Below are positions 3,004-27,171 of a stretch of 64,000 nt of DNA, in pieces. The notes under the pieces are model-generated. The model searched no databases. It had not been told where the DNA came from and was given only the letters and a program-made list of their open reading frames with translations. The translations under genes and the position numbers were made by a program. This stretch comes from an uncultured virus (IMG/VR IMGVR_UViG_3300024324_000019) (taxonomy: Duplodnaviria > Heunggongvirae > Uroviricota > Caudoviricetes). The stretch lies in the IMG/VR virus record IMGVR_UViG_3300024324_000019; one strand, given 5' to 3'. The stretch's first letter is position 1. Each line of letters begins with the position of its first letter.

Positions 3004-3047
3004 TTGACATTTGGTTGGAAATGGTGCATGATCAGATAGTAAGATCA
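3004..3047 (+). promoter_or_regulatory. Repeated early promoter cassette
   Basis: TTGACAtttggttggaaatggtgCATGATcagatagtaagatca. Confidence 0.85.
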
Positions 3048-3741: not shown

Positions 3742-4010
3742 TGGAAAATAACCAAGTGTTTCTGAAAGTTTGTGCTTTGACAGAAGACCTCAACAACGGG
3801 CAATACGGCATGGCGGCTGTTGACAGAATTGGTCAGGATTATATGTTTAGGTTGCAGGGCTGGGAAGTTCAGGGCAACTACATTCATGTAAACGATTGCA
3901 TTCTGGTTGAATATGGTAATATCGTTTATAATGCCAAAGAACCTGGCATGGCTGCCTCTGTTCGCAAGTTAGAAGAAGTGAAAGTTCTTGGCAACAAAGG
4001 TACACCATGA
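3738..4010 (+). CDS. Hypothetical protein, paralogue of 3064 C-terminal domain
   Basis: VFLKV...VDRIG...DCILVEY...KVLGNKG. Confidence 0.65.
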   Translation: MMENNQVFLKVCALTEDLNNGQYGMAAVDRIGQDYMFRLQGWEVQGNYIHVNDCILVEYGNIVYNAKEPGMAASVRKLEEVKVLGNKGTP

Positions 4011-4435
4011 AAAATCTTATCGCAATAGGCGCTATCGCTTTGTCCTTGACAGCCTGTATGGGCAGTAACAATGGCTCGACACTAGGGGGACTGGGTGGTT
4101 CTGCAATAGGAACCAAAGTTGGCTATGGGCTTGGTGGTGCTGCGACTGGTGCGCTCGTAGGCATGAACGTGTTCAACATGTTCAAGACAAAACGCAACCA
4201 TACTGACCTTGCATTTCAACAAGCGGCCGAACATGGTCAGCGCGGAGAGACTAGAAGTTGGTACGACCCATCTACATTCAACAGCGGGTCGTTCACGGTT
4301 GATAGCACGATCCAACGGGCTGATGGAAAGTATTGCCGTCAGTTATTTGAGACAGTGAAAATCCACAACAAAATTTATAGTAACATCATTTCCGCTTGTC
4401 GGAATAACAAGACCGCTCGCTGGGAGATAAATTGA
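4007..4435 (+). CDS. Glycine-zipper lipoprotein, 17-kDa surface antigen-like
   Basis: Lipobox LTAC, Gly-zipper, W.DP...SG, YCR...ACR...W. Confidence 0.75.
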   Translation: MKNLIAIGAIALSLTACMGSNNGSTLGGLGGSAIGTKVGYGLGGAATGALVGMNVFNMFKTKRNHTDLAFQQAAEHGQRGETRSWYDPSTFNSGSFTVDSTIQRADGKYCRQLFETVKIHNKIYSNIISACRNNKTARWEIN

Positions 4436-13157: not shown

Positions 13158-13736
13158 ATGACGACAGCATTTATAGTGGGCAACGGGCGGAGTCGTGAAG
13201 GCTTTGACCTCCGCTTCCTGAAACCATACGGCACAGTATACGGATGCAATCTGTTATTCACGGAATACCCAAACTTTGAGATACCAGACTTCACCGTTTC
13301 GATTGAAGACTATCGCAAGGAAATGATTCGTGAAGCTGGTTTTCCTGAAGACCGCTGTATCTTTCCGCCCGAACATGAACAATATGAATTAGAGGGCTAT
13401 AATGGTCCGTCTAGCATCAGGTCCAATGCCGGCATGAATGCTATGGCCGAAGCCATCAAGGCTGGAAACACCAGGCTGTATTTACTCGGCTTCGATTTCA
13501 TGTATAACAGTATTCAGAGCATTTCCAACATGTTCGACGGCGATAAAAAAGTTCGCACGACCATGACGGATTCTCAAAAACGCTGCCATTATTTTGATTG
13601 GTATGCCCGAGATAATCCCAACATACATTTCAGATTTGTGTTTGATGAATTGCATGAGGGCTTTCACCAATTGAGTGCCACGAATGCCGACGGAATTTTC
13701 TACAATACGTTGATGAAAGAATTAGAGAATGACTAG
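13158..13736 (+). CDS. Putative sugar-transferase-like protein (GNGxS motif)
   Basis: FIVGNGRSR, YGCN, YLLGFD, as in sialyltransferase/Maf-like folds. Confidence 0.55.
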   Translation: MTTAFIVGNGRSREGFDLRFLKPYGTVYGCNLLFTEYPNFEIPDFTVSIEDYRKEMIREAGFPEDRCIFPPEHEQYELEGYNGPSSIRSNAGMNAMAEAIKAGNTRLYLLGFDFMYNSIQSISNMFDGDKKVRTTMTDSQKRCHYFDWYARDNPNIHFRFVFDELHEGFHQLSATNADGIFYNTLMKELEND

Positions 13737-14475
13737 ATTTTTTGATGATATAGAAGAAGCCCCGTTTTGTGATGACGCGGTGTTTATTGGGTACGACCCA
13801 CTTGAGGACAAAGCCGCAAAGATGTTGGCTCATTCTATTCGTAGTCGAACCAATATGAAACTTGGTATTTTTCCTATCATACGGGACCAGTTGCTTGCTT
13901 ATGATATTTGTGACCGTCCTATTGACCCAATGGGCAGCACCCAGTTTTCTATCACCCGATTCCTTGTGCCACATTTGATGGGCTATCAGGGCGTTGGTGT
14001 GTTCATGGATTGTGATATGCTTATCACCCGGAATATTTTGGAAGTGTTTGACGCTTTCGATCCGTCTAAGGCTATTCAATGCCCACAGCATGATTATACA
14101 CCGAAGTTCGATGACAAGATGGGTGGTATACCACAGACGGTTTACCCACGGAAACAATGGTCCGCTTTCACGATTTATAATTGCGATCACCCTGTGACAA
14201 AACAACTCACCAACACGGTTGTTGAGACTGCCTCTCCTAAATACTTACACAGATTCGAATGGTGCCCCGATGAATATATCGGTGACTTGCCTCTTGATTT
14301 CAACTTTCTAGTTGGCGAACAGGACAAGCCAGAGAAGATGCCGATGGTAGTACATCATACGCTTGGGGCTCCTTTATTCGCCGAATGCCAAGATGTAGAT
14401 TATGCAGACTACTGGAAAGAGGAATTCAAGGCTACATTTGGTCGACCGTTTTCCCATGAGGATATTATCAACTGA
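13729..14475 (+). CDS. GT-A glycosyltransferase (family 8-like)
   Basis: VFIGYD, STQFSITRFLVP, FMDCDML (DxD), YPRKQWS, HHTLGAP. Confidence 0.85.
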   Translation: MTRFFDDIEEAPFCDDAVFIGYDPLEDKAAKMLAHSIRSRTNMKLGIFPIIRDQLLAYDICDRPIDPMGSTQFSITRFLVPHLMGYQGVGVFMDCDMLITRNILEVFDAFDPSKAIQCPQHDYTPKFDDKMGGIPQTVYPRKQWSAFTIYNCDHPVTKQLTNTVVETASPKYLHRFEWCPDEYIGDLPLDFNFLVGEQDKPEKMPMVVHHTLGAPLFAECQDVDYADYWKEEFKATFGRPFSHEDIIN

Positions 14476-14664
14476 GTGATTTTGGTCGACCAGTAATTTT
14501 TGCTCGGTGTTCGTCTGTCTGTTTATAACCAACACCCCATTTATTACCCATTGCCGATTTACTCATTTTCGCTTTTGTCTCGGCTGACCATTTGACGCAT
14601 AACGGGCGCCATAGTATTTTTGACCAGTCGTTTTGGAAGTAACTAAATATGTGTATGGAATCAT
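14468..14664 (-). pseudogene. Internally deleted, frameshifted GIY-YIG/NUMOD3 homing endonuclease remnant
   Basis: MIPYTYLVTSKTTGQKYYGARY... then in another frame KWSAETKAKMSKSAMGNKWGVGYKQTDEHRAKI; AGGAG RBS and TATAAATA upstream. Confidence 0.75.
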
Positions 14665-14726
14665 TTGCTGATATCTCCTATGAGAGAATTAGATGTGGTG
14701 GGAACTACGAATTCCGCGACTACAAC

Positions 14727-14734
14727 TATTTATA
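14727..14734 (-). promoter_or_regulatory. T4-type late promoter for the endonuclease remnant
   Basis: TATAAATA on minus strand. Confidence 0.6.
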
Positions 14735-14752
14735 ACAACAAGGAAATAGATA

Positions 14753-15688
14753 ATGGGTAAGATTACCGACCGGATTGATAACATAACAGGGATGAAAGAA
14801 AAACATTTTTCTCTCAAGCCACCCACACCCGAAAGTGTGAAAATTGAACTGACAGGAAAATGTAATTTTCGATGCGGATTTTGTGCCCATAATGATCGTT
14901 TACGACAAACAGGCGCAATGGATTGGGACCTCTTCAAAAGAGTGGTAAAAGAAATGCGTGAGGCTGGAGTCGAGGAACTTGGAATGTTTTATTTGGGTGA
15001 ATCATTTTTAGACCCAAGGTTGCCTGAAGCCATTCGGTATGCCAAAGAAGACTGCGGTTATCCGTATGTGTTTTTGACAACCAACGGTTCTCTGTCTACA
15101 CCCGAGAAGGTGAAAGAATGCATGGAGGCTGGACTCGATAGCCTCAAGTTCTCATTGAACTATGCCGACGAGGAGCAATTCAAGGAAATCGCACGGGTCA
15201 AGGGTGAACTGTTTTACACCATTGCCGAGAACGTCAAGGGTGCTTACAAGGTCCGTGAAGAAGGTGGCTATAACTGCACCCTCTCTGCTTCCTTTATCGA
15301 ATACACAGGCGACCAAGCTGACAAGATCGAGGAATACCTGGCTGACTTGAGCCCACACCTTGATGAAATGTATGCGCTGCCTTTATACAACCAGGCTGCT
15401 TTGGTCGAAAATGAAGATTGGACTTTCGTTCAAGGAAACCGTGGTCGGCTTGACGCGCTACGCGACCCACTCCCATGTTGGAGTATTTTCACCGAGGGGC
15501 ACATTTCCTTTGATGGTCGCCTAAGCGCCTGTTGCTTCGACCACGACTCTAGGTTTGATATGGGTGACCTTAATACAACTTCATTCATGGACGCATGGCA
15601 TTCTGAAAAGTTTCAGGAGTTACGGGCCAAGCATATTGAAAAAGATGTGACCGGAACTATTTGCGAACAATGCGTAATTTATGATTGA
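14753..15688 (+). CDS. Radical SAM protein with SPASM/twitch domain
   Basis: CNFRCGFC (CxxxCxxC), TTNG, C-terminal CWS...CCFD...G...CEQC. Confidence 0.93.
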   Translation: MGKITDRIDNITGMKEKHFSLKPPTPESVKIELTGKCNFRCGFCAHNDRLRQTGAMDWDLFKRVVKEMREAGVEELGMFYLGESFLDPRLPEAIRYAKEDCGYPYVFLTTNGSLSTPEKVKECMEAGLDSLKFSLNYADEEQFKEIARVKGELFYTIAENVKGAYKVREEGGYNCTLSASFIEYTGDQADKIEEYLADLSPHLDEMYALPLYNQAALVENEDWTFVQGNRGRLDALRDPLPCWSIFTEGHISFDGRLSACCFDHDSRFDMGDLNTTSFMDAWHSEKFQELRAKHIEKDVTGTICEQCVIYD

Positions 15689-18488: not shown

Positions 18489-18527
18489 TTGACATTTACC
18501 CCGAAATGGTGCATGATCTAGATAGTG
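18489..18527 (+). promoter_or_regulatory. Divergent copy of the early promoter cassette
   Basis: TTGACAtttaccccgaaatggtgCATGATctagatagt. Confidence 0.75.
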
Positions 18528-19096
18528 ATTGTTTACCTTTTGAGGAGAAAATCATGTGTGAAATTCGGAATGCAATTTTAGAAGCCCTGGTCGAAATGGA
18601 TATGAACCATAACCAAGCTGTTATTCATGCCATAGAAATTACCGGTTGTGAGGATGTTGAGGCCGAAGAAGCCTACGACGAAGTTTTTGAAACTCTGACT
18701 TACGGAATGTGATTATGGATATTGTTGAAGAATTACGCCACAAGGCAAACAATAAACTCCGGCGTGTTGTTGAAGATATGTCTTTACAAAATCGCCAGTT
18801 GCTGGCCGCATTACAAGCGGTTCCACAATATTTTGAGGTGAAAAAGGATAACCCTTTGTGATGTTGAAAATTGTACTGATCGTGACCAGCCTTGTATCTG
18901 GAAATGAATTGACCAGGGTTCCTTATGACGACTGGAAAACCTGCCGGACTGAGTCTATCAAAGTTATCAACCAAATGTCTACCGACGTTGATGTTGTCTG
19001 TGTCCCTATGAAAGTCAAAGACCCCGCTGTGGCGAAAGCCGAGACTGCCAAAATGTTTGGGATGATTAGCGCATTCATCAAAGCGATGGAAGACCA

Positions 19097-19531
19097 GTGA
19101 AAACATCATTGACCGTCGGCGCTCTTATGCTGCTTTCAACAGCCGCAAGCGCCACGACTCCATGCTATATTGATAGACAGACAAAAGAGGTCTATCATGG
19201 TAGGCTGGATTATATCAAAAGCGTATCGTCAACGACGGTGCCTTTTTTGACTGGGCGCAAATGCGTCGTACAGGTTGTTGGGTTGGTTGGTACATCCGAG
19301 GTATCGGGTACTTCATCATTTTTCTTTAGACCCAGCGAGACAGAGAAATGGGCGTGTGAACAGGCTCTTATTGAAGCCAAGACGAAAATCCTTGAACAGA
19401 CTTCGCACACGTTAAGTATGGTGAAAAAAGAGGTCTGTAAAACGGGTATGAAAATGCAGGGAAACAATCGGATCATTGATACGGCTCGATTTGGATTGCC
19501 CTGGGTTAAACCCAAATTTATTGGAAATTGA
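19097..19531 (+). CDS. Secreted Cys-containing protein
   Basis: Sec-type signal (LMLLSTAASA), 4 Cys. Confidence 0.65.
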   Translation: MKTSLTVGALMLLSTAASATTPCYIDRQTKEVYHGRLDYIKSVSSTTVPFLTGRKCVVQVVGLVGTSEVSGTSSFFFRPSETEKWACEQALIEAKTKILEQTSHTLSMVKKEVCKTGMKMQGNNRIIDTARFGLPWVKPKFIGN

Positions 19532-20175
19532 TTATGAAAAAGTTACTCGCTACCGTTAGCATGTTGGCCCTTTTGGGTGCTTGTTCACAAACCATTGATA
19601 TTGACCCTCAGGCAGAAACTACCCACTCCAAAGCCTACCTCGAGAAAAAGTCAACCGTGACAGAAGAAACGGTTAGTTCTATTCCCGATTGGTTTTTGGA
19701 CACACCTGCGAAAGAGGACTCGGTGTTCTCTGCGGGCACGGCTACCTCTCAAGACCTTCAGTTGTCGGTTGACTTGGCCGTTCTAGCGGCTAAACGAGTC
19801 TTGGCGGATCGTATCCGTGGTCAAATGAGTTCTAAACTCAAGGAATATACTTCCAGGGTTGGACAGGCTGCTTCTGGACATATCGTATCTGAGGTCGAGC
19901 GTGTCACAGCCAACTTGATTGCCAACGCCCAAGCCAGTGGTTATCATGTAAACGAAACCAAAGTGGTTCCTCATGGCAACCTCTATCGTACCTATGCGCT
20001 GTTGGAGTTTCCTATCAACGGAACCAACGAGATCGCGTTAGCCCAACTGGTTAAGGTTTTGAATACCGAAAGCCTGGGTCGTGCGGCTGCAGCCCATAAG
20101 GAACTGGAAAAAGAAACCAATGTGCCCGTCGCAACTATGCCTGCCTTGCCCGTTCCTAAAGTGACGACCGAGTAA
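19528..20175 (+). CDS. Lipoprotein, LPP20-like
   Basis: Lipobox LGAC; PDWF...GTATS.DLQ...D.A...AK..LAD. Confidence 0.7.
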   Translation: MIMKKLLATVSMLALLGACSQTIDIDPQAETTHSKAYLEKKSTVTEETVSSIPDWFLDTPAKEDSVFSAGTATSQDLQLSVDLAVLAAKRVLADRIRGQMSSKLKEYTSRVGQAASGHIVSEVERVTANLIANAQASGYHVNETKVVPHGNLYRTYALLEFPINGTNEIALAQLVKVLNTESLGRAAAAHKELEKETNVPVATMPALPVPKVTTE

Positions 20176-20390
20176 TGACACCTGAAATTTTTATCGTTTT
20201 AGGTCTGGCTGCCTTTGTGATATGGAAGGCTGGGCTTGGTAATTTTGTATTATCAGGCCTAGTCACTATTTGTTTATTGGGTATTACACCACCCGAACTT
20301 TTTGATACAGTCTTTCAATGGGCTGATATCACCGTGAAACAACTTACAGAATTAGGACAATACATTGCCGATTTATTCAATAAGAAATAA
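20175..20390 (+). CDS. Small membrane protein
   Basis: Two hydrophobic segments, TAATG coupling. Confidence 0.6.
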   Translation: MTPEIFIVLGLAAFVIWKAGLGNFVLSGLVTICLLGITPPELFDTVFQWADITVKQLTELGQYIADLFNKK

Positions 20391-20622
20391 GAAGACCAAA
20401 AAGGAATGGGAGGAGTATTGTACCTGGGACGAACTACAATCCCATCTATCAGCCCACCCAAACTGGGAAACCTTTATCGCCCAAGCACCATTATTTTTGG
20501 GTGACAACATGAGGAGCGTTTCAGGTTTGAAGCATACTCCCGAATTCCGTGAAACCTTACAGCGGGTGAAAGAACACCACCCTAAGAGTACCATTGATGT
20601 TGGCAACAAAACAGACATTTGA
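20365..20622 (+). CDS. Small conserved protein (FmdB-like N-terminus)
   Basis: MPIYSIRNKKTKKEWE...F.E.L..VK..HP. Confidence 0.6.
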   Translation: MPIYSIRNKKTKKEWEEYCTWDELQSHLSAHPNWETFIAQAPLFLGDNMRSVSGLKHTPEFRETLQRVKEHHPKSTIDVGNKTDI

Positions 20623-21298
20623 TTTCATAGGTGATATGAAGGAGATTTATAAGGGCGGTCGTCGCTTTTATCTAACTCCCGAAGGTCGCCACTATCCTTC
20701 GGTTACCACCGTCCTTGCGTCGGATGACGAAAAGAACGAGGGTCTGGCTAAATGGCGTGAAGCCGTTGGTGATGAAGAAGCCGACAGAGTGAGTCGAGTT
20801 GGACGTTTGCGTGGTTCAGCCTTGCATGATATGATCGAAAAGTATCTGTTGGGCAATGAAAACTACGACGCCAATATTATGCCTGGCGTGGACTCCATGT
20901 TCTCGTCTATCAAACCTATCCTTGACGGCACTATCACCGATATTGCACACCAAGAAGTTGCGATGTATTCTGACTACCTTGAAACTGGTGGTCGCTGTGA
21001 TATGATCGCTAAATATAAGGGAAAGTTGGCTATTGTTGATTTCAAAAACTCGCGGAAATTCCGCAAGAAAGAATTCATCAAGTCTTATTTCATGCAATGC
21101 GCGGTCTATGCCGTGATGTATGAGGAACTTACGGGCACCCCTATCAATGATATAATCATTATTATGGCTGTCGAAAACAGACCTGAAGGTGTGGTCTACC
21201 ATGAGAAACGCGACGACCACATCGGGGATTATATCGAATTGAGGAAAGAGTATGAAAAGACCCTTAATCCTAATTACATTAGCCGGTTTGCTGCTTAG
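20594..21298 (+). CDS. PD-(D/E)xK exonuclease
   Basis: YPSVTTVL, RGSALH, GRCD, IVDFKNS, YFMQCAVYA. Confidence 0.88.
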   Translation: MMLATKQTFDFIGDMKEIYKGGRRFYLTPEGRHYPSVTTVLASDDEKNEGLAKWREAVGDEEADRVSRVGRLRGSALHDMIEKYLLGNENYDANIMPGVDSMFSSIKPILDGTITDIAHQEVAMYSDYLETGGRCDMIAKYKGKLAIVDFKNSRKFRKKEFIKSYFMQCAVYAVMYEELTGTPINDIIIIMAVENRPEGVVYHEKRDDHIGDYIELRKEYEKTLNPNYISRFAA

Positions 21299-21698
21299 TG
21301 GCTGTATCTCTGTCGAGATAAAACACGTCGGTGAGGTAGTGAAACCTGCGGTGAAAGTCGCGAAGGCGGTCGTGAAACCTCCTGTTGTTGCGAAAGCAAA
21401 GCCACGACCAAAGCCTGTACCACGAAAAACTGGTCAGGCATTCCAACGGGCGAAGCCAGTAATTTGCAATGAAACCAAGTATGTTATGGCAAACATCGAA
21501 CACTCAAAACAAATTTCTATTGAGATAGGTGTTGCGAATAACGACAAAGTGGTCATTGTGACTTATGTTGATCCAAAGACAAGAAATTTTACCGTTGTCG
21601 AACACTACACCAATAAAATGTCCTGCTATATTTTTATCGGCAAACAATTGCATATTGATTTGAAAATGAAAAAACCCGATCAAAGGGCAGAAGGCTGA
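21252..21698 (+). CDS. Lipoprotein with Pro/Lys-rich linker
   Basis: Lipobox LSGC then VVKPAVKVAKAVVKPPVVAKAKPRPKPVPRK. Confidence 0.7.
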   Translation: MKRPLILITLAGLLLSGCISVEIKHVGEVVKPAVKVAKAVVKPPVVAKAKPRPKPVPRKTGQAFQRAKPVICNETKYVMANIEHSKQISIEIGVANNDKVVIVTYVDPKTRNFTVVEHYTNKMSCYIFIGKQLHIDLKMKKPDQRAEG

Positions 21699-22186
21699 TG
21701 AAAAAATTCTTTATGCGATGGTACTTGTTTGCGGCTGTGATGATTTCTTTGGTCGCTGTAATGACAATGTTTGACATTCACCACCTATTCATTGACAATG
21801 ACCAGACGTTCATAAGTACAGGCATTTTCGGCGTCTTTGTTCTATCGTCCTTGGTCCTAGGATTGAAGACGTACCGAGTAGCCTTCAATGATGTTTGGTC
21901 AGATAGCAAATATCTCTGGTACATTCCAGAGTTCATGGTGACCGCAGGGCTCGTCGGCACTATCATCGGCTTTATTATTGCGACCAGCGGGACGTTTGGG
22001 TTGCTTGATGTTTCTGATACGTCTAGCGTTAAGGAAGCTCTGGTATCGGTGGCTGCTGGATTGGGTACTGCGCTATACACAACCCTTATGGGCTATGTCT
22101 GTGGTGTGTTGGTCAGCCTACAGATAATGAACATGGAAATGGCGATTGGTGCCTACGGTGAAACAAGCGATGAATATTTCGGTTAA
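21698..22186 (+). CDS. MotA/TolQ/ExbB-family proton-channel membrane protein
   Basis: Four hydrophobic helices; GLVGTIIGFI and GLGTALYTTLMG signature helices. Confidence 0.85.
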   Translation: MKKFFMRWYLFAAVMISLVAVMTMFDIHHLFIDNDQTFISTGIFGVFVLSSLVLGLKTYRVAFNDVWSDSKYLWYIPEFMVTAGLVGTIIGFIIATSGTFGLLDVSDTSSVKEALVSVAAGLGTALYTTLMGYVCGVLVSLQIMNMEMAIGAYGETSDEYFG

Positions 22187-22823
22187 GACGGTCACCAAGA
22201 CCGCATTCATAGACGTTCTATTTCTGACGGCTCTGACCTTTGTGTCTCTGTTTATTCTGACTGCGATCCTTATCAATCCACCCACGAAGAAGCAAGACGT
22301 TAAGAAGAAGGCCGATTACATCATTGTCCTTGACTGGGATGCCAATGTGGCTGATGACGTTGATATGTGGGTGCAGACACCAGCGGGGCAACCTGTCGGA
22401 TTCAAAAACACCCAAAACGGTTCTCTATACCTTGAGCGCGACGACCTCGGCGTTCATAACGATAAATCGGTGGACGGTGCAGGCAACGAAGTGATAGCCC
22501 GAATCAATCGTGAGGTCATTACTGTGAGGGTGCCAACGGCTGGCGAATATGTGGTCAACGTCCATATGTATACCAAACGCGGCCCTGAACCAGTGACTGG
22601 TACTGTGGAACTTATCCAGATAAACCCATACAAAGTCCACAGAATCGCGGGCTTCATATTACAGAGGAACCGTGAGGAATTACACATGTTCAGATTCACA
22701 TTGAAGCCAAATGGCAAAGCCCGTGATGTAGGACCGAGGAGCGCATTTTTTATCAACAAGATGTTGCAAGCCTCTATGCACCCAGGCGAAGTTGGATATA
22801 GACCTAATGGAGTTGGCCGATGA
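22170..22823 (+). CDS. ExbD/TolR/MotB-like partner with periplasmic beta domain
   Basis: TAFIDVLF (membrane Asp) plus single TM; W...DDVDMWV.TP...DDLG...E......GEYVVNVHMY resembles YfaP-type domains. Confidence 0.7.
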   Translation: MNISVKTVTKTAFIDVLFLTALTFVSLFILTAILINPPTKKQDVKKKADYIIVLDWDANVADDVDMWVQTPAGQPVGFKNTQNGSLYLERDDLGVHNDKSVDGAGNEVIARINREVITVRVPTAGEYVVNVHMYTKRGPEPVTGTVELIQINPYKVHRIAGFILQRNREELHMFRFTLKPNGKARDVGPRSAFFINKMLQASMHPGEVGYRPNGVGR

Positions 22824-23287
22824 GCGCGTTCCTTTTATTTCTAGCCCTATTCATGTATATTGCGGTGACGTTCTGGCTCATTATCTTGATGAGAGGGAAT
22901 ACCTGGCGCATGGTATTGATGATACCAATCACAATGGCTCTCGCCGTCAATGGGTATGCTGTCTATCAGGATTTATTGGGAGATCCTACAACCAGCGAAT
23001 ACCTCGGGGAATACCGATTGGTCGATAGTTTGGTTGACGAGCCTACAGCGATTTTCCTATGGGTTCTACCGAATGATGCTGTTGCCCTCAAACCCAAGAA
23101 CCTAGAGTTGCCTTACACCAAAGAAATGCACAAGAAACTGGATGAAGCAAAACGAGCGAAAGCCAAAGGGATAAAGACCGATATTAAATTGAAGCGTGGC
23201 AAAGGCAATCAACGCAAGGTTTTTATGGAACTATTGAAACAGCCCGAACAACCATTGCCAAGAAAGCAAGTAGACCAAACAGACTAA
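22820..23287 (+). CDS. Two-TM membrane protein, last gene of the ExbB/D-like operon
   Basis: Two N-terminal hydrophobic helices, ATGA coupling. Confidence 0.7.
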   Translation: MSAFLLFLALFMYIAVTFWLIILMRGNTWRMVLMIPITMALAVNGYAVYQDLLGDPTTSEYLGEYRLVDSLVDEPTAIFLWVLPNDAVALKPKNLELPYTKEMHKKLDEAKRAKAKGIKTDIKLKRGKGNQRKVFMELLKQPEQPLPRKQVDQTD

Positions 23288-23827: not shown

Positions 23828-23995
23828 ATTATTTACTGGGTGGCGCTGTTTTCATGGTCGCTTTGATGGCGGCTGGCTGGGCTGACGCAGGCATTATGAT
23901 TGTCGAAAACGTCAAGATATATGTGCCCTGATGGAAAGACATATAACATCGGCTTCATAGCCGGATTTATTATGGGTGGAATGATTGTTTATGTC

Positions 23996-24026
23996 TTGAC
24001 CCCATATCACCGAGTATGTATAAATA
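23996..24026 (+). promoter_or_regulatory. Overlapping sigma70-like and late promoters for tmRNA
   Basis: TTGACC-17-TATAAA, with TATAAATA at 24019-24026. Confidence 0.6.
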
Positions 24027-24029
24027 AAG

Positions 24030-24350
24030 TTGCTATTGATGAAGCGAATTGAAAAGTATATCGGATACCGGGGGGCGGTACCCCGCACCTCCACCATAAG
24101 AACATTGTTTAAATAGGAATGAAAGTTCTGGGCATAGCCAACGAAATCACCTAGGTGGTTGACAGTGTTTTTTTGCTGGGGGTGAAATTAGGATCGACCG
24201 ATGCTGAATAGGTGAGTGGAGATAGTCGTATGAGCAGGCGTTCTGGCTCAATTAAGTAACCGCAAACGATAACCGTTTTGCATTTGAGGCTTTCGCTATC
24301 GCAGCGTGATCTCATTGGGTTCGGGGGAACCTAGAAACAGAATCCCCCAA
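24030..24350 (+). ncRNA. ssrA: Permuted two-piece tmRNA, alphaproteobacterial type; tag ANDNRFAFEAFAIAA
   Basis: Acceptor piece ending CACCTCC-A-CCA (24086-24096) precedes GGGGGTG...GGATCGAC (from 24178); the two pair fully with G3.U70; tag ORF 24262-24309. Confidence 0.93.
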
Positions 24351-24388
24351 TTTATTTCATTTTTTTTGACTTTTTATGCACTTTTCAC

Positions 24389-25544: not shown

Positions 25545-26207
25545 ATGAAATCCATAACATTTACGGCTGCGTTTGTGGCTGTTGGTTGGTATGCGAGTAC
25601 AATGGGTGACTTGGCTGGAAAAGCCGAATTTGAAAAACCAGAACCTGTGAAAGTGAGTGTTAGTTATGATCGACAATTTCGACTCGGATATCCGGCAGAT
25701 AAAACGGAATCTAAAACGAGCCAGATACCTGATATCGCAAAGGAAAGACAATATGCCACTCTTGCGCCACAATTGGGAACTCTTGAGCGTATCCAACGCC
25801 TGGATTTATCCGCAAAAGCCTTTGAGTGCGCCGCATTGGCGGTATACCATGAGGCGAAGAATCAGAGCGATACTGGGCAAAGAGCCGTCTACCACGTTGT
25901 TGCGAATCGGGTTCTTGACAGTGGCTTTCCTGGTCGCGTATGCGGCGTGGTCAAGCAATCAAAAACCTGGAAGGGTAATCCAATACGAAACAAATGTCAC
26001 TTCTCCTTTTATTGTGACGGAAAGAGCGACAAGCCACGAGATCTGACAGCCTGGGAAAAGGCTAAAGATGTTGTGACGGCTGCTAATGCGGAGCAAGACA
26101 TAACCCATGGGGCCCTTTGGTATCATGCGAATTATGTCAGCCCTTATTGGAGCAAGACTTTCAAAGAGGTCGCCACGATTGGCGACCACATTTTTTACAG
26201 GAAATAG
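25545..26207 (+). CDS. SleB/Hydrolase_2 cell-wall hydrolase
   Basis: C.ALAVYHEA, V..NRV....FP..VCGVV.Q, C.FS.YCDG.SD, GALWYHA.YV.P.W, IGDHIFY. Confidence 0.93.
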   Translation: MKSITFTAAFVAVGWYASTMGDLAGKAEFEKPEPVKVSVSYDRQFRLGYPADKTESKTSQIPDIAKERQYATLAPQLGTLERIQRLDLSAKAFECAALAVYHEAKNQSDTGQRAVYHVVANRVLDSGFPGRVCGVVKQSKTWKGNPIRNKCHFSFYCDGKSDKPRDLTAWEKAKDVVTAANAEQDITHGALWYHANYVSPYWSKTFKEVATIGDHIFYRK

Positions 26208-26817: not shown

Positions 26818-27171
26818 ATGAAATATGGTAAAGTATGGGGAACGACCGAACCCCTTATCGAAACTCCTCTTATTGAGTTTCACCGAATAACAATCAAACC
26901 GAATATGCAATGCAGCCTGCATAAGCATACCCAAAAGTGGAATGCGTTCTATGTGGTCAAAGGCGTGTTGCAAATTGTTGTATTCAAAAACGATTATGAC
27001 CTTGAAGACACAACCAACCTGGGACCCGGTGATTTCACGACTGTAAAACCTGGAGAATTTCATTTATTCAAATCGAATGAAATGCATGTTGAAGCATTTG
27101 AACTTTATTATCCGTCGGCTTTGTCAGAAGACATTATCCGCAAAACCGTAGGAGGCGCAATTGAAATCTGA
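26818..27171 (+). CDS. Cupin-domain protein
   Basis: KVWG, CSLHKH..K.N.FYV..G, PG.FH.F. Confidence 0.8.
   Translation: MKYGKVWGTTEPLIETPLIEFHRITIKPNMQCSLHKHTQKWNAFYVVKGVLQIVVFKNDYDLEDTTNLGPGDFTTVKPGEFHLFKSNEMHVEAFELYYPSALSEDIIRKTVGGAIEI

Follow-up and report, generated by a model that had tools for sequence, protein, structure and literature searches.

The stretch of DNA analysed here (the window, 64,000 nt) derives from an uncultured virus of the Caudoviricetes, IMG/VR record IMGVR_UViG_3300024324_000019. Its + strand carries four successive genes, termed here gene 1, A, B and C (Table 1), for which an earlier note, made from the sequence alone, had proposed a phage-encoded, ion-driven membrane motor of the ExbB/ExbD kind. 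The four open reading frames (ORFs) were verified at their coordinates. They overlap by 1 nt (gene 1/A), 17 nt (A/B) and 4 nt (B/C), and the motifs quoted for the channel helices are present: GLVGTIIGFI at residues 84–93 and GLGTALYTTLMG at residues 121–132 of A, and AFIDVLF, which includes Asp15, at residues 12–18 of B. A T4-like exonuclease (phrog_298), an FmdB-type regulator (phrog_385) and baseplate genes identify the window as a T4-like myovirus and the module as phage-encoded. None of the four gene products has a PHROG match.

Table 1. Features of the window, with the corresponding genes of cultured phages
Feature	Position	Strand	Description
Gene 1	21252..21698	+	148 aa; predicted lipoprotein with Pro/Lys/Val-rich linker and C-terminal two-Cys domain of a secreted-protein family
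Gene A	21698..22186	+	162 aa; minimal MotA/TolQ/ExbB-family subunit; four transmembrane (TM) helices, MotA-like topology
Thr88 of A	21959..21961	+	Putative pore residue
Thr129 of A	22082..22084	+	Putative pore residue
Gene B	22170..22823	+	217 aa from ATG at 22170; frame open from TTG at 22146
Asp15 of B	22212..22214	+	Asp within the TM helix
Head of B	22305..22769	+	Approximately residues 46–200; acidic beta-sandwich in the model
Gene C	22820..23287	+	155 aa; TM hairpin (residues 2–23 and 28–52), basic loop, small beta-sheet/helix domain; third core subunit
Promoter cassette	18489..18518	+	Sigma-70-type, TTGACA-17-CATGAT; one of eight repeat copies; heads the 12-ORF chain
tmRNA	23992..24351	+	Permuted (two-piece), alphaproteobacterial type; RF01849 89.1 bits (gathering 50), RF04321 91.9 bits (gathering 47)
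Trios of cultured phages			P10VF_191-193; RHph_I1_18 EVB91_122-124; RHph_N3_19 EVB99_065-067; temperate 16-3 p038/p040/p042
Lipoprotein gene	4007..4432	+	142 aa; clusters with glycine-zipper 17-kDa surface antigens
Three-gene cluster	13158..15688	+	192-aa protein (family in eight loci); 248-aa protein, presumably a glycosyltransferase (no Pfam match); radical SAM/SPASM enzyme (PF04055, PF13186)
Secreted protein gene	19097..19531	+	144 aa, Cys-containing
Lipoprotein gene	19528..20175	+	215 aa; weak LPP20 match (E 0.05)
Cell wall hydrolase gene	25545..26207	+	Signal-anchored, SleB-type; PF07486, E 1e-22
Cupin gene	26818..27171	+	PF07883

The product of gene A can be placed in the MotA/ExbB family, as the earlier note had it. 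PF01618 matches it with E 9e-5 and 22.7 bits, just below the cut-off of 22.9, and is carried by 13 of 14 A homologues, the remaining one being the window's own cluster. Against solved structures, a 102-row A profile matches MotA (8gqy, E 2e-6), PomA (8bri, E 7e-4) and TolQ (9kpz/8odt, E 1e-3), the E-values for these three spanning 2e-6 to 2e-3, and weakly ExbB (E 0.5–0.6). Used as a single query, the window's A found no cultured phage and no viral contig, and its relatives are reached only via profiles or a more central sequence. Thr88 and Thr129 align with the G-T motifs of MotA and PomA, so that both pore threonines are kept; the rows of the profile have Thr at the first position in 94 of 102 cases and at the second in all 102. 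In ExbBD, the residues reported as essential in the text of PMC12905483 are ExbD Asp25 and ExbB Thr148 and Thr181. An Asp specific to the family, Asp35, is present in 100 of the 102 A rows. Of the four TM helices that had been predicted, three are found by hydropathy; the fourth falls below the hydropathy cut and rests on the alignment to MotA and PomA. The loop between TM2 and TM3 comprises 30 aa in the window, with a median of 31 aa in 39 viral rows versus 69.5 aa in 58 bacterial rows, and A terminates approximately 20 residues beyond its last helix. This short loop suggests that the phage A forms a minimal ring without a cytoplasmic torque domain.

In its predicted structure (pLDDT 89.9), B consists of a basic N-terminus, one TM helix (residues 10–35), a linker of approximately 12 residues and an all-beta head. 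Hydropathy likewise gives a single TM segment, and Asp15 within it is conserved in 150 of 150 aligned members. B, encoded after A, thus has the form of the single-TM partner with a membrane Asp that had been proposed. The family comprises 1,752 clusters at 50 % identity (E<=1e-10); at E<=1e-3, a 13-row B profile reaches 2,289 of the 50 %-identity representatives, the weak tail of which may include other families. D15, W56, D63, D65, D91, G94 and E115 are invariant in the best 150 members, and D63, D65, D91, D92, E115 and R120 are kept in the viral, both bacterial and the cultured-phage groups.

The head of B has its best structural matches in TerD (2qz7, Z 9.5, rmsd 3.8 over 133 aligned residues) and in 2kxt, an entry titled as calcium-binding (Z 8.6, rmsd 5.3, 147 aligned), the next fold scoring Z 5.8. 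Foldseek also placed TerD-type chains in four of its top five rows (E 3.6e-4 to 6.6e-4). At the sequence level, the TerD family PF02342 matched none of 148 B members at E<=0.01, and the nearest named family, DUF2135/YfaP, was matched weakly (four of 148 members at E<=0.01; Atlas feature score 0.83–0.84). PF02472 (ExbD/TolR) was matched by one of the 148 (E 0.005), and B has no OmpA Pfam match. The earlier view that this periplasmic domain is unlike those of ExbD and MotB therefore stands. The head is modelled as a TerD-like sandwich with invariant acidic residues, and by analogy it might bind a Ca2+- or lanthanide-type cation. No TerD gene was found in five module-bearing genomes.

The two TM helices suggested for C are found by hydropathy, and its small domain folds directly beyond the TM hairpin in the predicted structure (pLDDT 88.7). 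Because the loop between the helices is basic, the positive-inside rule would place this domain in the periplasm. C has no sequence match in the PDB; a wider structure search matched its TM hairpin only, and Foldseek gave nothing at E<=1e-3, the top rows being weak matches to OB-fold metal chaperones (SilF, E 0.13). The SHLS TM motif has been defined for Ton/Tol transducers (text of PMC12905483). The full motif occurs in none of 125 C rows, two of which have S-x3-H, and neither C nor gene 1 has a TonB/TolA match in Pfam or NCBIfam. With no SHLS motif and no long linker to span the periplasm in its 155 aa, C is not an equivalent of TonB/TolA, and its proposed role as a TonB/TolA-like output is not upheld. 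Complex predictions of A3:B2:C1 scored C as a partner at 0.00 in both runs, which, with no folded controls, is evidence neither way.

A, B and C are conserved together in phages and in bacteria. A pattern search of IMG/VR gave 407 matches, 364 of which were confirmed to encode a B relative, which places the family on hundreds of viral contigs. In the best 80 of these loci, C follows B in 80 and A precedes B in 76, the other four starting at a contig end; in one (L044) a gene lies between A and B. The genes directly upstream of A belong to 24 different families, and the flanks are made up of large-myovirus genes. This diversity of upstream neighbours suggests that the trio is a mobile cassette. 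Among GTDB genomes, a bacterial-type query gave at least 570 confirmed members in the 600 matches listed, and the best 80 loci contain B and C in all cases and A in 76. The order A-B-C was found in 30 of 30 loci from a class sample (C being cut off in one) and in 14 of 14 further bacterial loci. A central B sequence matched 29 of 50,697 cultured-phage records, all of them rhizobial, and the four phages examined (Table 1) carry A, B and C with the membrane Asp kept in each; their genes are annotated as hypothetical or bear bare ORF numbers. The co-conservation sought by a synteny survey is thus present in viral, bacterial and cultured-phage loci. The module is indeed encoded by phages, but it is not a phage speciality, being common in Proteobacteria. 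As judged from sequence, A-B-C travel as a cassette in which A keeps both pore Thr residues and B its TM Asp.

In a quick, unrooted tree of B, built from the 94 rows left of 211 by dereplication, 37 bacterial rows form a single group (support 99), apart from the viral rows, and a low-GC lineage of bacteria stands next to six viral ones (support 96); the window's B lies on a long branch. This tree gives no direction of transfer between phages and bacteria. The low-GC lineage (L191 and L192, from genomes G296 and G178) consists of alphaproteobacterial genomes of 1.1–1.2 Mb with a GC content of 0.27–0.28, has the short form of A and is a candidate point of phage–host exchange. In L192, the trio adjoins genes that by resemblance would be pqqB, genes of a pyrroloquinoline quinone (PQQ)-system ABC transporter and beta-propeller genes.

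Gene 1 has a different distribution. It contains a lipobox, LSG-C18, after a hydrophobic signal, and residues 22–60 hold seven Pro and nine Lys, in agreement with its earlier description as a lipoprotein with a Pro/Lys-rich linker. Homologues occur in 11 of the 80 viral loci (ten between the exonuclease gene and A, and one, L003, after C), in none of the 80 bacterial loci and among none of 22 cultured-phage genes tested. None of six aligned homologues has a lipobox, which makes it a trait of this phage only; their linkers hold one to six Lys/Arg and three to six acidic residues, compared with 13 and two in the window's gene 1. The C-terminal domain was matched in two of 23 viral records, in one of them approximately 50 kb from the trio, and in five of 39 module-bearing bacterial genomes, where the fetched flanks contain no A, B or C. 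A secreted protein encoded after C in viral locus L035 was considered as a further homologue and ruled out (probability 0.2 %). Gene 1 is a clade-specific neighbour, a passenger and not a core part, and neither a part in the machine nor a TonB/TolA-like output can be ascribed to it on this distribution and with homologues that lack the lipobox and the Lys-rich linker. With the L003 homologue placed after C, an accessory function in one clade retains a low probability.

A four-gene operon cannot be read from the overlaps by themselves, since the four genes form the end of a gap-free chain of 12 overlapping ORFs, which extends from 18554 to 23287 with an overlap at all 11 junctions and ends in gene C. 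Of the four-gene operon, A-B-C remain as a unit and gene 1 is lost as a member. The motif TATAAATA, which we take to be the late motif, is absent from the + strand between 11016 and 24019. The promoter cassette at the head of the chain, the continuous overlaps and the absence of TATAAATA point to early or middle expression, away from a role in lysis in this phage, and the chain with the trio is, on these sequence signals, likely to be an early or middle transcription unit. The tmRNA lies 700 nt downstream of the trio and, being of the permuted alphaproteobacterial type, suggests an alphaproteobacterial host. At least half of the region's sampled words are contained in 18 of 20 sequencing runs, all of which are seawater/marine metagenomes; the nearest virus record (G001) does not have this region. 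Metatranscriptome contigs from four seawater RNA runs cover all 30 bins of 17–30 kb, and a single one spans 21324–22844, but the flat coverage is also compatible with DNA and does not establish expression.

Comparison with known systems places the trio within the MotA/TolQ/ExbB superfamily, as a relative of each and a member of none. With ExbB-ExbD(-TonB) and TolQ-TolR(-TolA) it shares the last two A helices with both pore Thr residues, a single B helix with Asp, the A-B gene order and a third membrane protein encoded next. However, the A subunit has four TM helices and hardly any cytoplasmic domain, the head of B is TerD-like and not of the ExbD/TolR fold, and C, unlike TonB and TolA, has two TM helices and neither an SHLS motif nor a linker that would span the periplasm; a TonB/TolA C-domain was not detected in it. 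The four-TM topology and the best solved-structure matches of the A profile are shared with MotA-MotB and PomA-PomB, from which the trio differs in that A lacks the torque-generating cytoplasmic domain, B lacks the long plug and linker and the OmpA-like domain, no flagellar genes lie nearby and there is an extra subunit, C. The D-x-D and D-D-x-G acidic motifs and the beta-sandwich (Z 9.5 and 8.6) link the head of B to TerD and DUF2135/YfaP, whereas its anchoring by an Asp-bearing membrane helix, the lack of a PF02342 match and a location outside any ter operon set it apart.

The nearest published concept is the pair of a TolQ-like subunit and a TPH-vWA protein set out in the text of PMC12204202, in which a TolQ-like subunit is likewise combined with a transpore helix bearing a non-ExbD head, a head proposed there to act directly as the rotor. 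The trio differs in having a TerD-like rather than a vWA head, one B gene rather than a heterologous pair, and a conserved C. The main text of PMC12204202 does not contain the terms TerD, YfaP, DUF2135, PQQ or viral, and that of PMC12505986 does not contain TerD, although the homologue tables of both could list members; a term search of PMC11996626 gave no ExbB, MotA, TolQ or phage. No published description of the trio was found in the open-access literature, nor any experiment on one of its members. On its sequence, the trio belongs to the superfamily and lacks the features that define Ton/Tol systems, flagellar stators and Zorya. It is a real, widespread and apparently undescribed variant of the 5:2 kind of motor, with three core genes and not four.

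A and B have the appearance of a motor pair of the MotA/ExbB family in which the channel residues Thr88, Thr129 and Asp15 are kept, and it is quite probable that A, B and C together have the architecture of a MotA/ExbB/TolQ-kind machine. By homology, five A subunits would surround two B helices, and ion flow past Asp15, probably of protons, would turn the B dimer. More tentatively, the B head on its short stalk might work near the inner membrane and not at the outer membrane, while C, beside the ring, might act as a fixed partner that holds a periplasmic client against the moving head. Such a machine could be a loader or remodeller that runs on the proton-motive force (PMF), performing in the ATP-free periplasm work that could not otherwise be paid for there. 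The phage copy would be a streamlined version with a short cytoplasmic loop, probably expressed early or middle. The full proposal, a three-part inner-membrane ion motor that serves the host's periplasmic metal and quinoprotein handling for the phage, is a possibility that falls slightly short of an even chance.

The bacterial loci suggest what such a client could be. Recurrent neighbours of the trio are a PQQ alcohol dehydrogenase (TIGR03075), cytochrome c550 PedF, a PQQ-system ABC transporter, pqqB-E and a SoxYZ-like carrier, and at least one of 11 PQQ-system families lies within the fetched DNA of 47 of the 80 loci. A first class sample consisted of 400 genomes spread evenly over the class to which G002, an alphaproteobacterium, belongs. 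Of these, 56 have B; the PQQ dehydrogenase is present in 25 of the 26 genomes with a close B match (E<=1e-59) and in 77 of the 374 others (p 3e-15). In a second class, that of Ideonella (G003), which we take to be the Gammaproteobacteria of GTDB, it is present in 20 of 29 module-bearing genomes and in 25 of 270 others (p 2e-12), with one genome unscored and four of the 25 background positives (G702, G712, G466 and G553) being unpublished genomes. An extra Asp is found in 22 of 28 neighbouring dehydrogenases, two residues past the presumed catalytic Asp; six long ones were unparsed. This extra Asp is described, in the text of 10.1101/2020.02.25.964783, as diagnostic of lanthanide enzymes. A MotA/TolQ/ExbB pair of Methylomicrobium 20Z that cannot be assigned to the trio family, MEALZ_3990/3991, is reported to be La-repressed (text of PMC6277846). 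In many bacteria, to judge from these gene neighbourhoods, the client is likely to be the lanthanide/PQQ alcohol dehydrogenase system.

Several observations count against this proposal. In the second bacterial B subfamily of the first class, the dehydrogenase is present in six of 26 genomes, which is the background rate, and four weak B matches in that class have none; the split between the subfamilies was set post hoc from a gap in E-values, and the co-occurrence tests ignore phylogeny. Nine of the 29 module-bearing genomes of the second class are without the dehydrogenase and have the trio among unrelated, mostly housekeeping genes. On the viral side, PF01011 has no match in five large trio-bearing records, two of them complete, and the majority of viral B sequences are deeply diverged and fall outside the main clade of bacterial ones, so that phages may have another client. 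Lys takes the place of the first pore Thr in eight of the 102 A rows, all from bacterial loci. In addition, the similarity of the B head to TerD is moderate (rmsd 3.8). Maintenance of the periplasmic metal and quinoprotein handling of an alphaproteobacterial host during infection is the leading candidate for the phage job, although on its own it is rather unlikely; wall-directed work ranks just below it, and an ion leak, a Ton/Tol decoy and a Zorya-like system rank lower.

A role at the cell wall, likewise rather unlikely, would have C act as an adaptor that positions a wall enzyme or makes contact with peptidoglycan, with A and B coupling it to the PMF for local wall opening, lysis control or superinfection exclusion. 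In 13 of the 80 viral loci (L004, L005, L029, L044, L053 and eight more), the C-terminal and presumptively periplasmic end of C carries a phage lysozyme fused in frame (PF00959, E 5e-42 to 6e-50). Within that C subfamily, a targeted scan found the fusion in 14 of 30 loci. The residues E-x8-D-x5-T, a spacing that we take to be that of the lysozyme catalytic triad, are intact in all 13, and the frame is maintained over linkers of varied length at 55–79 % identity; a SleB-type hydrolase gene follows C in L017, L019 and L022. However, all 13 also have an internal ATG or GTG start with a GGAG/GAGG Shine–Dalgarno-like site at the beginning of the lysozyme, even where Met is replaced by Val (GTG). 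A free lysozyme could be made from this start, so that a stop codon may simply have been lost and the loss tolerated; possibly the fusion is a dual-product gene, giving a tethered and a free enzyme. Furthermore, in the B tree the fused forms fall into a single group whose sister groups are unfused, the window's C is unfused, and its trio lies in an early-type unit; upstream of A, the late motif was found in seven of 75 loci, versus 37 of 1096 other genes. A second C match in L046 proved to be a free lysozyme drawn in by the fused rows and was left out of the counts. No longer C fusions were found at 528–2000 aa, a search range blind to fusions of approximately 300 aa. The envelope remodelling that the earlier note had entertained thus retains one clue, the lysozyme fusion, whereas nothing in the analysis spoke positively for superinfection exclusion, jamming of Ton/Tol import or Zorya-like sensing.

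The remaining alternatives are improbable to different degrees. A and B could conduct ions without mechanical work and partly depolarize the host, blocking PMF-dependent phage entry or damping defences. The short viral A loop (median 31 versus 69.5 aa) and the approximately 12-residue linker between the TM helix and head of B, far below the MotB plug and linker that gate ion flow (PMC12505986, main text), would suit such a leak, but non-flagellar motors generally lack a defined plug according to the same text, and C and the acidic head, kept in every group examined, would be superfluous; this reading is improbable. Only marginally less credible is that the trio uses the MotA/ExbB scaffold for something other than a rotary motor, as a cation channel, a transporter or a sensor, or that it is a passenger from which the phage gains little. 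The TerD-like acidic head would fit the former. As to the latter, PhiM9, described in PMC4621102 as a close relative of P10VF, is not among the 29 cultured-phage matches to B, which suggests that the trio may be dispensable. Nevertheless, the arrangement of an Asp with a Thr ring is that of known 5:2 motors (text of PMC12204202), and phages carry the trio intact and in deeply diverged forms, which argues for selection.

A Ton/Tol-like phage system or decoy, in which gene 1 or C would be the TonB/TolA-like transducer and energize or jam outer-membrane import, is very improbable. The alignment of A with TolQ (E 1e-3) and, weakly, ExbB, the Pro/Lys-rich stretch of gene 1, and a TonB-dependent receptor family near the trio in six of the 80 bacterial loci are consistent with it, but C is short and without SHLS motif or long linker, and the B head is not ExbD-like. 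Gene 1 has a signal peptide or lipobox in place of an uncleaved anchor and is missing from 69 of the viral and all 80 bacterial loci, and the linkers of its homologues are less basic or acidic. Least credible is a Zorya-like sensor of competing phages. The channel part of ZorA models gives A weak matches, with E-values of 2.5e-7 to 0.046 and a score of 24 bits where the cut-off is 500, and the setting is phage-related; however, A has 162 aa compared with 413–692 positions in the models and lacks the long ZorA-type tail, and neither B nor C has a PADLOC match, ZorB and effectors included. The neighbours of the trio in the 80 viral loci include no recurrent effector gene, and the trio is phage-encoded, with metabolic genes rather than a defence context beside it in bacteria.

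Other features of these loci were noted. The promoter cassette TTGACA-17-CATGAT occurs on the + strand of the window at 3004, 6937, 8479, 15994, 16402, 18489, 23517 and 24389; each copy precedes clusters of small ORFs, and seven of the eight run on into a CAGATAGTAAGATCA-like sequence and a purine-rich leader. We take these to resemble the mobile early-promoter cassettes of T4-like phages. The tmRNA was seen by the Rfam models and missed by ARAGORN, and a copy of the late-type motif TATAAATA lies within its span, at 24019. Besides gene 1, two lipoprotein genes and one secreted-protein gene of the window (Table 1) encode predicted envelope proteins; the two that precede the trio on its overlap chain (19528..20175 and 19097..19531) have homologues in none of the 80 viral loci. 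One viral clade has a gene for ribosomal protein S21 (phrog_21469) at a distance of one to three genes beyond C (L029:10235-10447 and 18 other loci), and a ClpP-like protease gene directly precedes A in 12 viral loci. In phage 16-3 (L233, 5211–7072), two unrelated small genes are interspersed among p038, p040 and p042. The immX region lies approximately 4 kb upstream of this trio, which comes after a gene for a trypsin-like protease; RHph_N3_19 likewise has a trypsin-like gene close to its trio. In 44 of the 80 bacterial loci (e.g. L104:9100-9813), C is followed by a fourth gene, for a lipoprotein of approximately 235 aa, DUF3108-like in 18 of 35 members and tripled in L110 and L142. In four gammaproteobacterial loci (L223, L224, L230 and L232), the trio abuts a large gene that, by its N-terminal sequence, presumably encodes a thioredoxin-domain protein of the DUF255 type.

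The 5:2 motors of the cited literature, as far as its text covers them (MotAB, PomAB, ExbBD, TolQR, AglRQS, GldLM, SiiAB and ZorAB), are cellular. The trio would add to these an unnamed relative that is borne by viruses and has a different head and a third subunit. Because cultured, non-pathogen systems carry it (P10VF with Rhizobium leguminosarum, temperate phage 16-3, and strains of Ideonella and Rubrivivax), its function is directly testable. A broader scheme, speculative and unlikely as a whole, is that large lytic and temperate alphaproteobacterial phages install a rotary motor of their own, with C as a swappable adaptor through which the host PMF drives or restrains a periplasmic client. 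In one marine clade the client would be a covalently tethered muramidase, and the bacterial counterpart would be a PMF-powered loader of lanthanide/PQQ enzymes. If so, the tethered muramidase would be a motor-controlled, PMF-sensing wall enzyme and a new way to time lysis or exclude competitors. More generally, if the motor reading is right, phages would perform mechanical work in the periplasm at the expense of the host PMF, and an energized step may exist in the bacterial maturation of lanthanide/PQQ enzymes.

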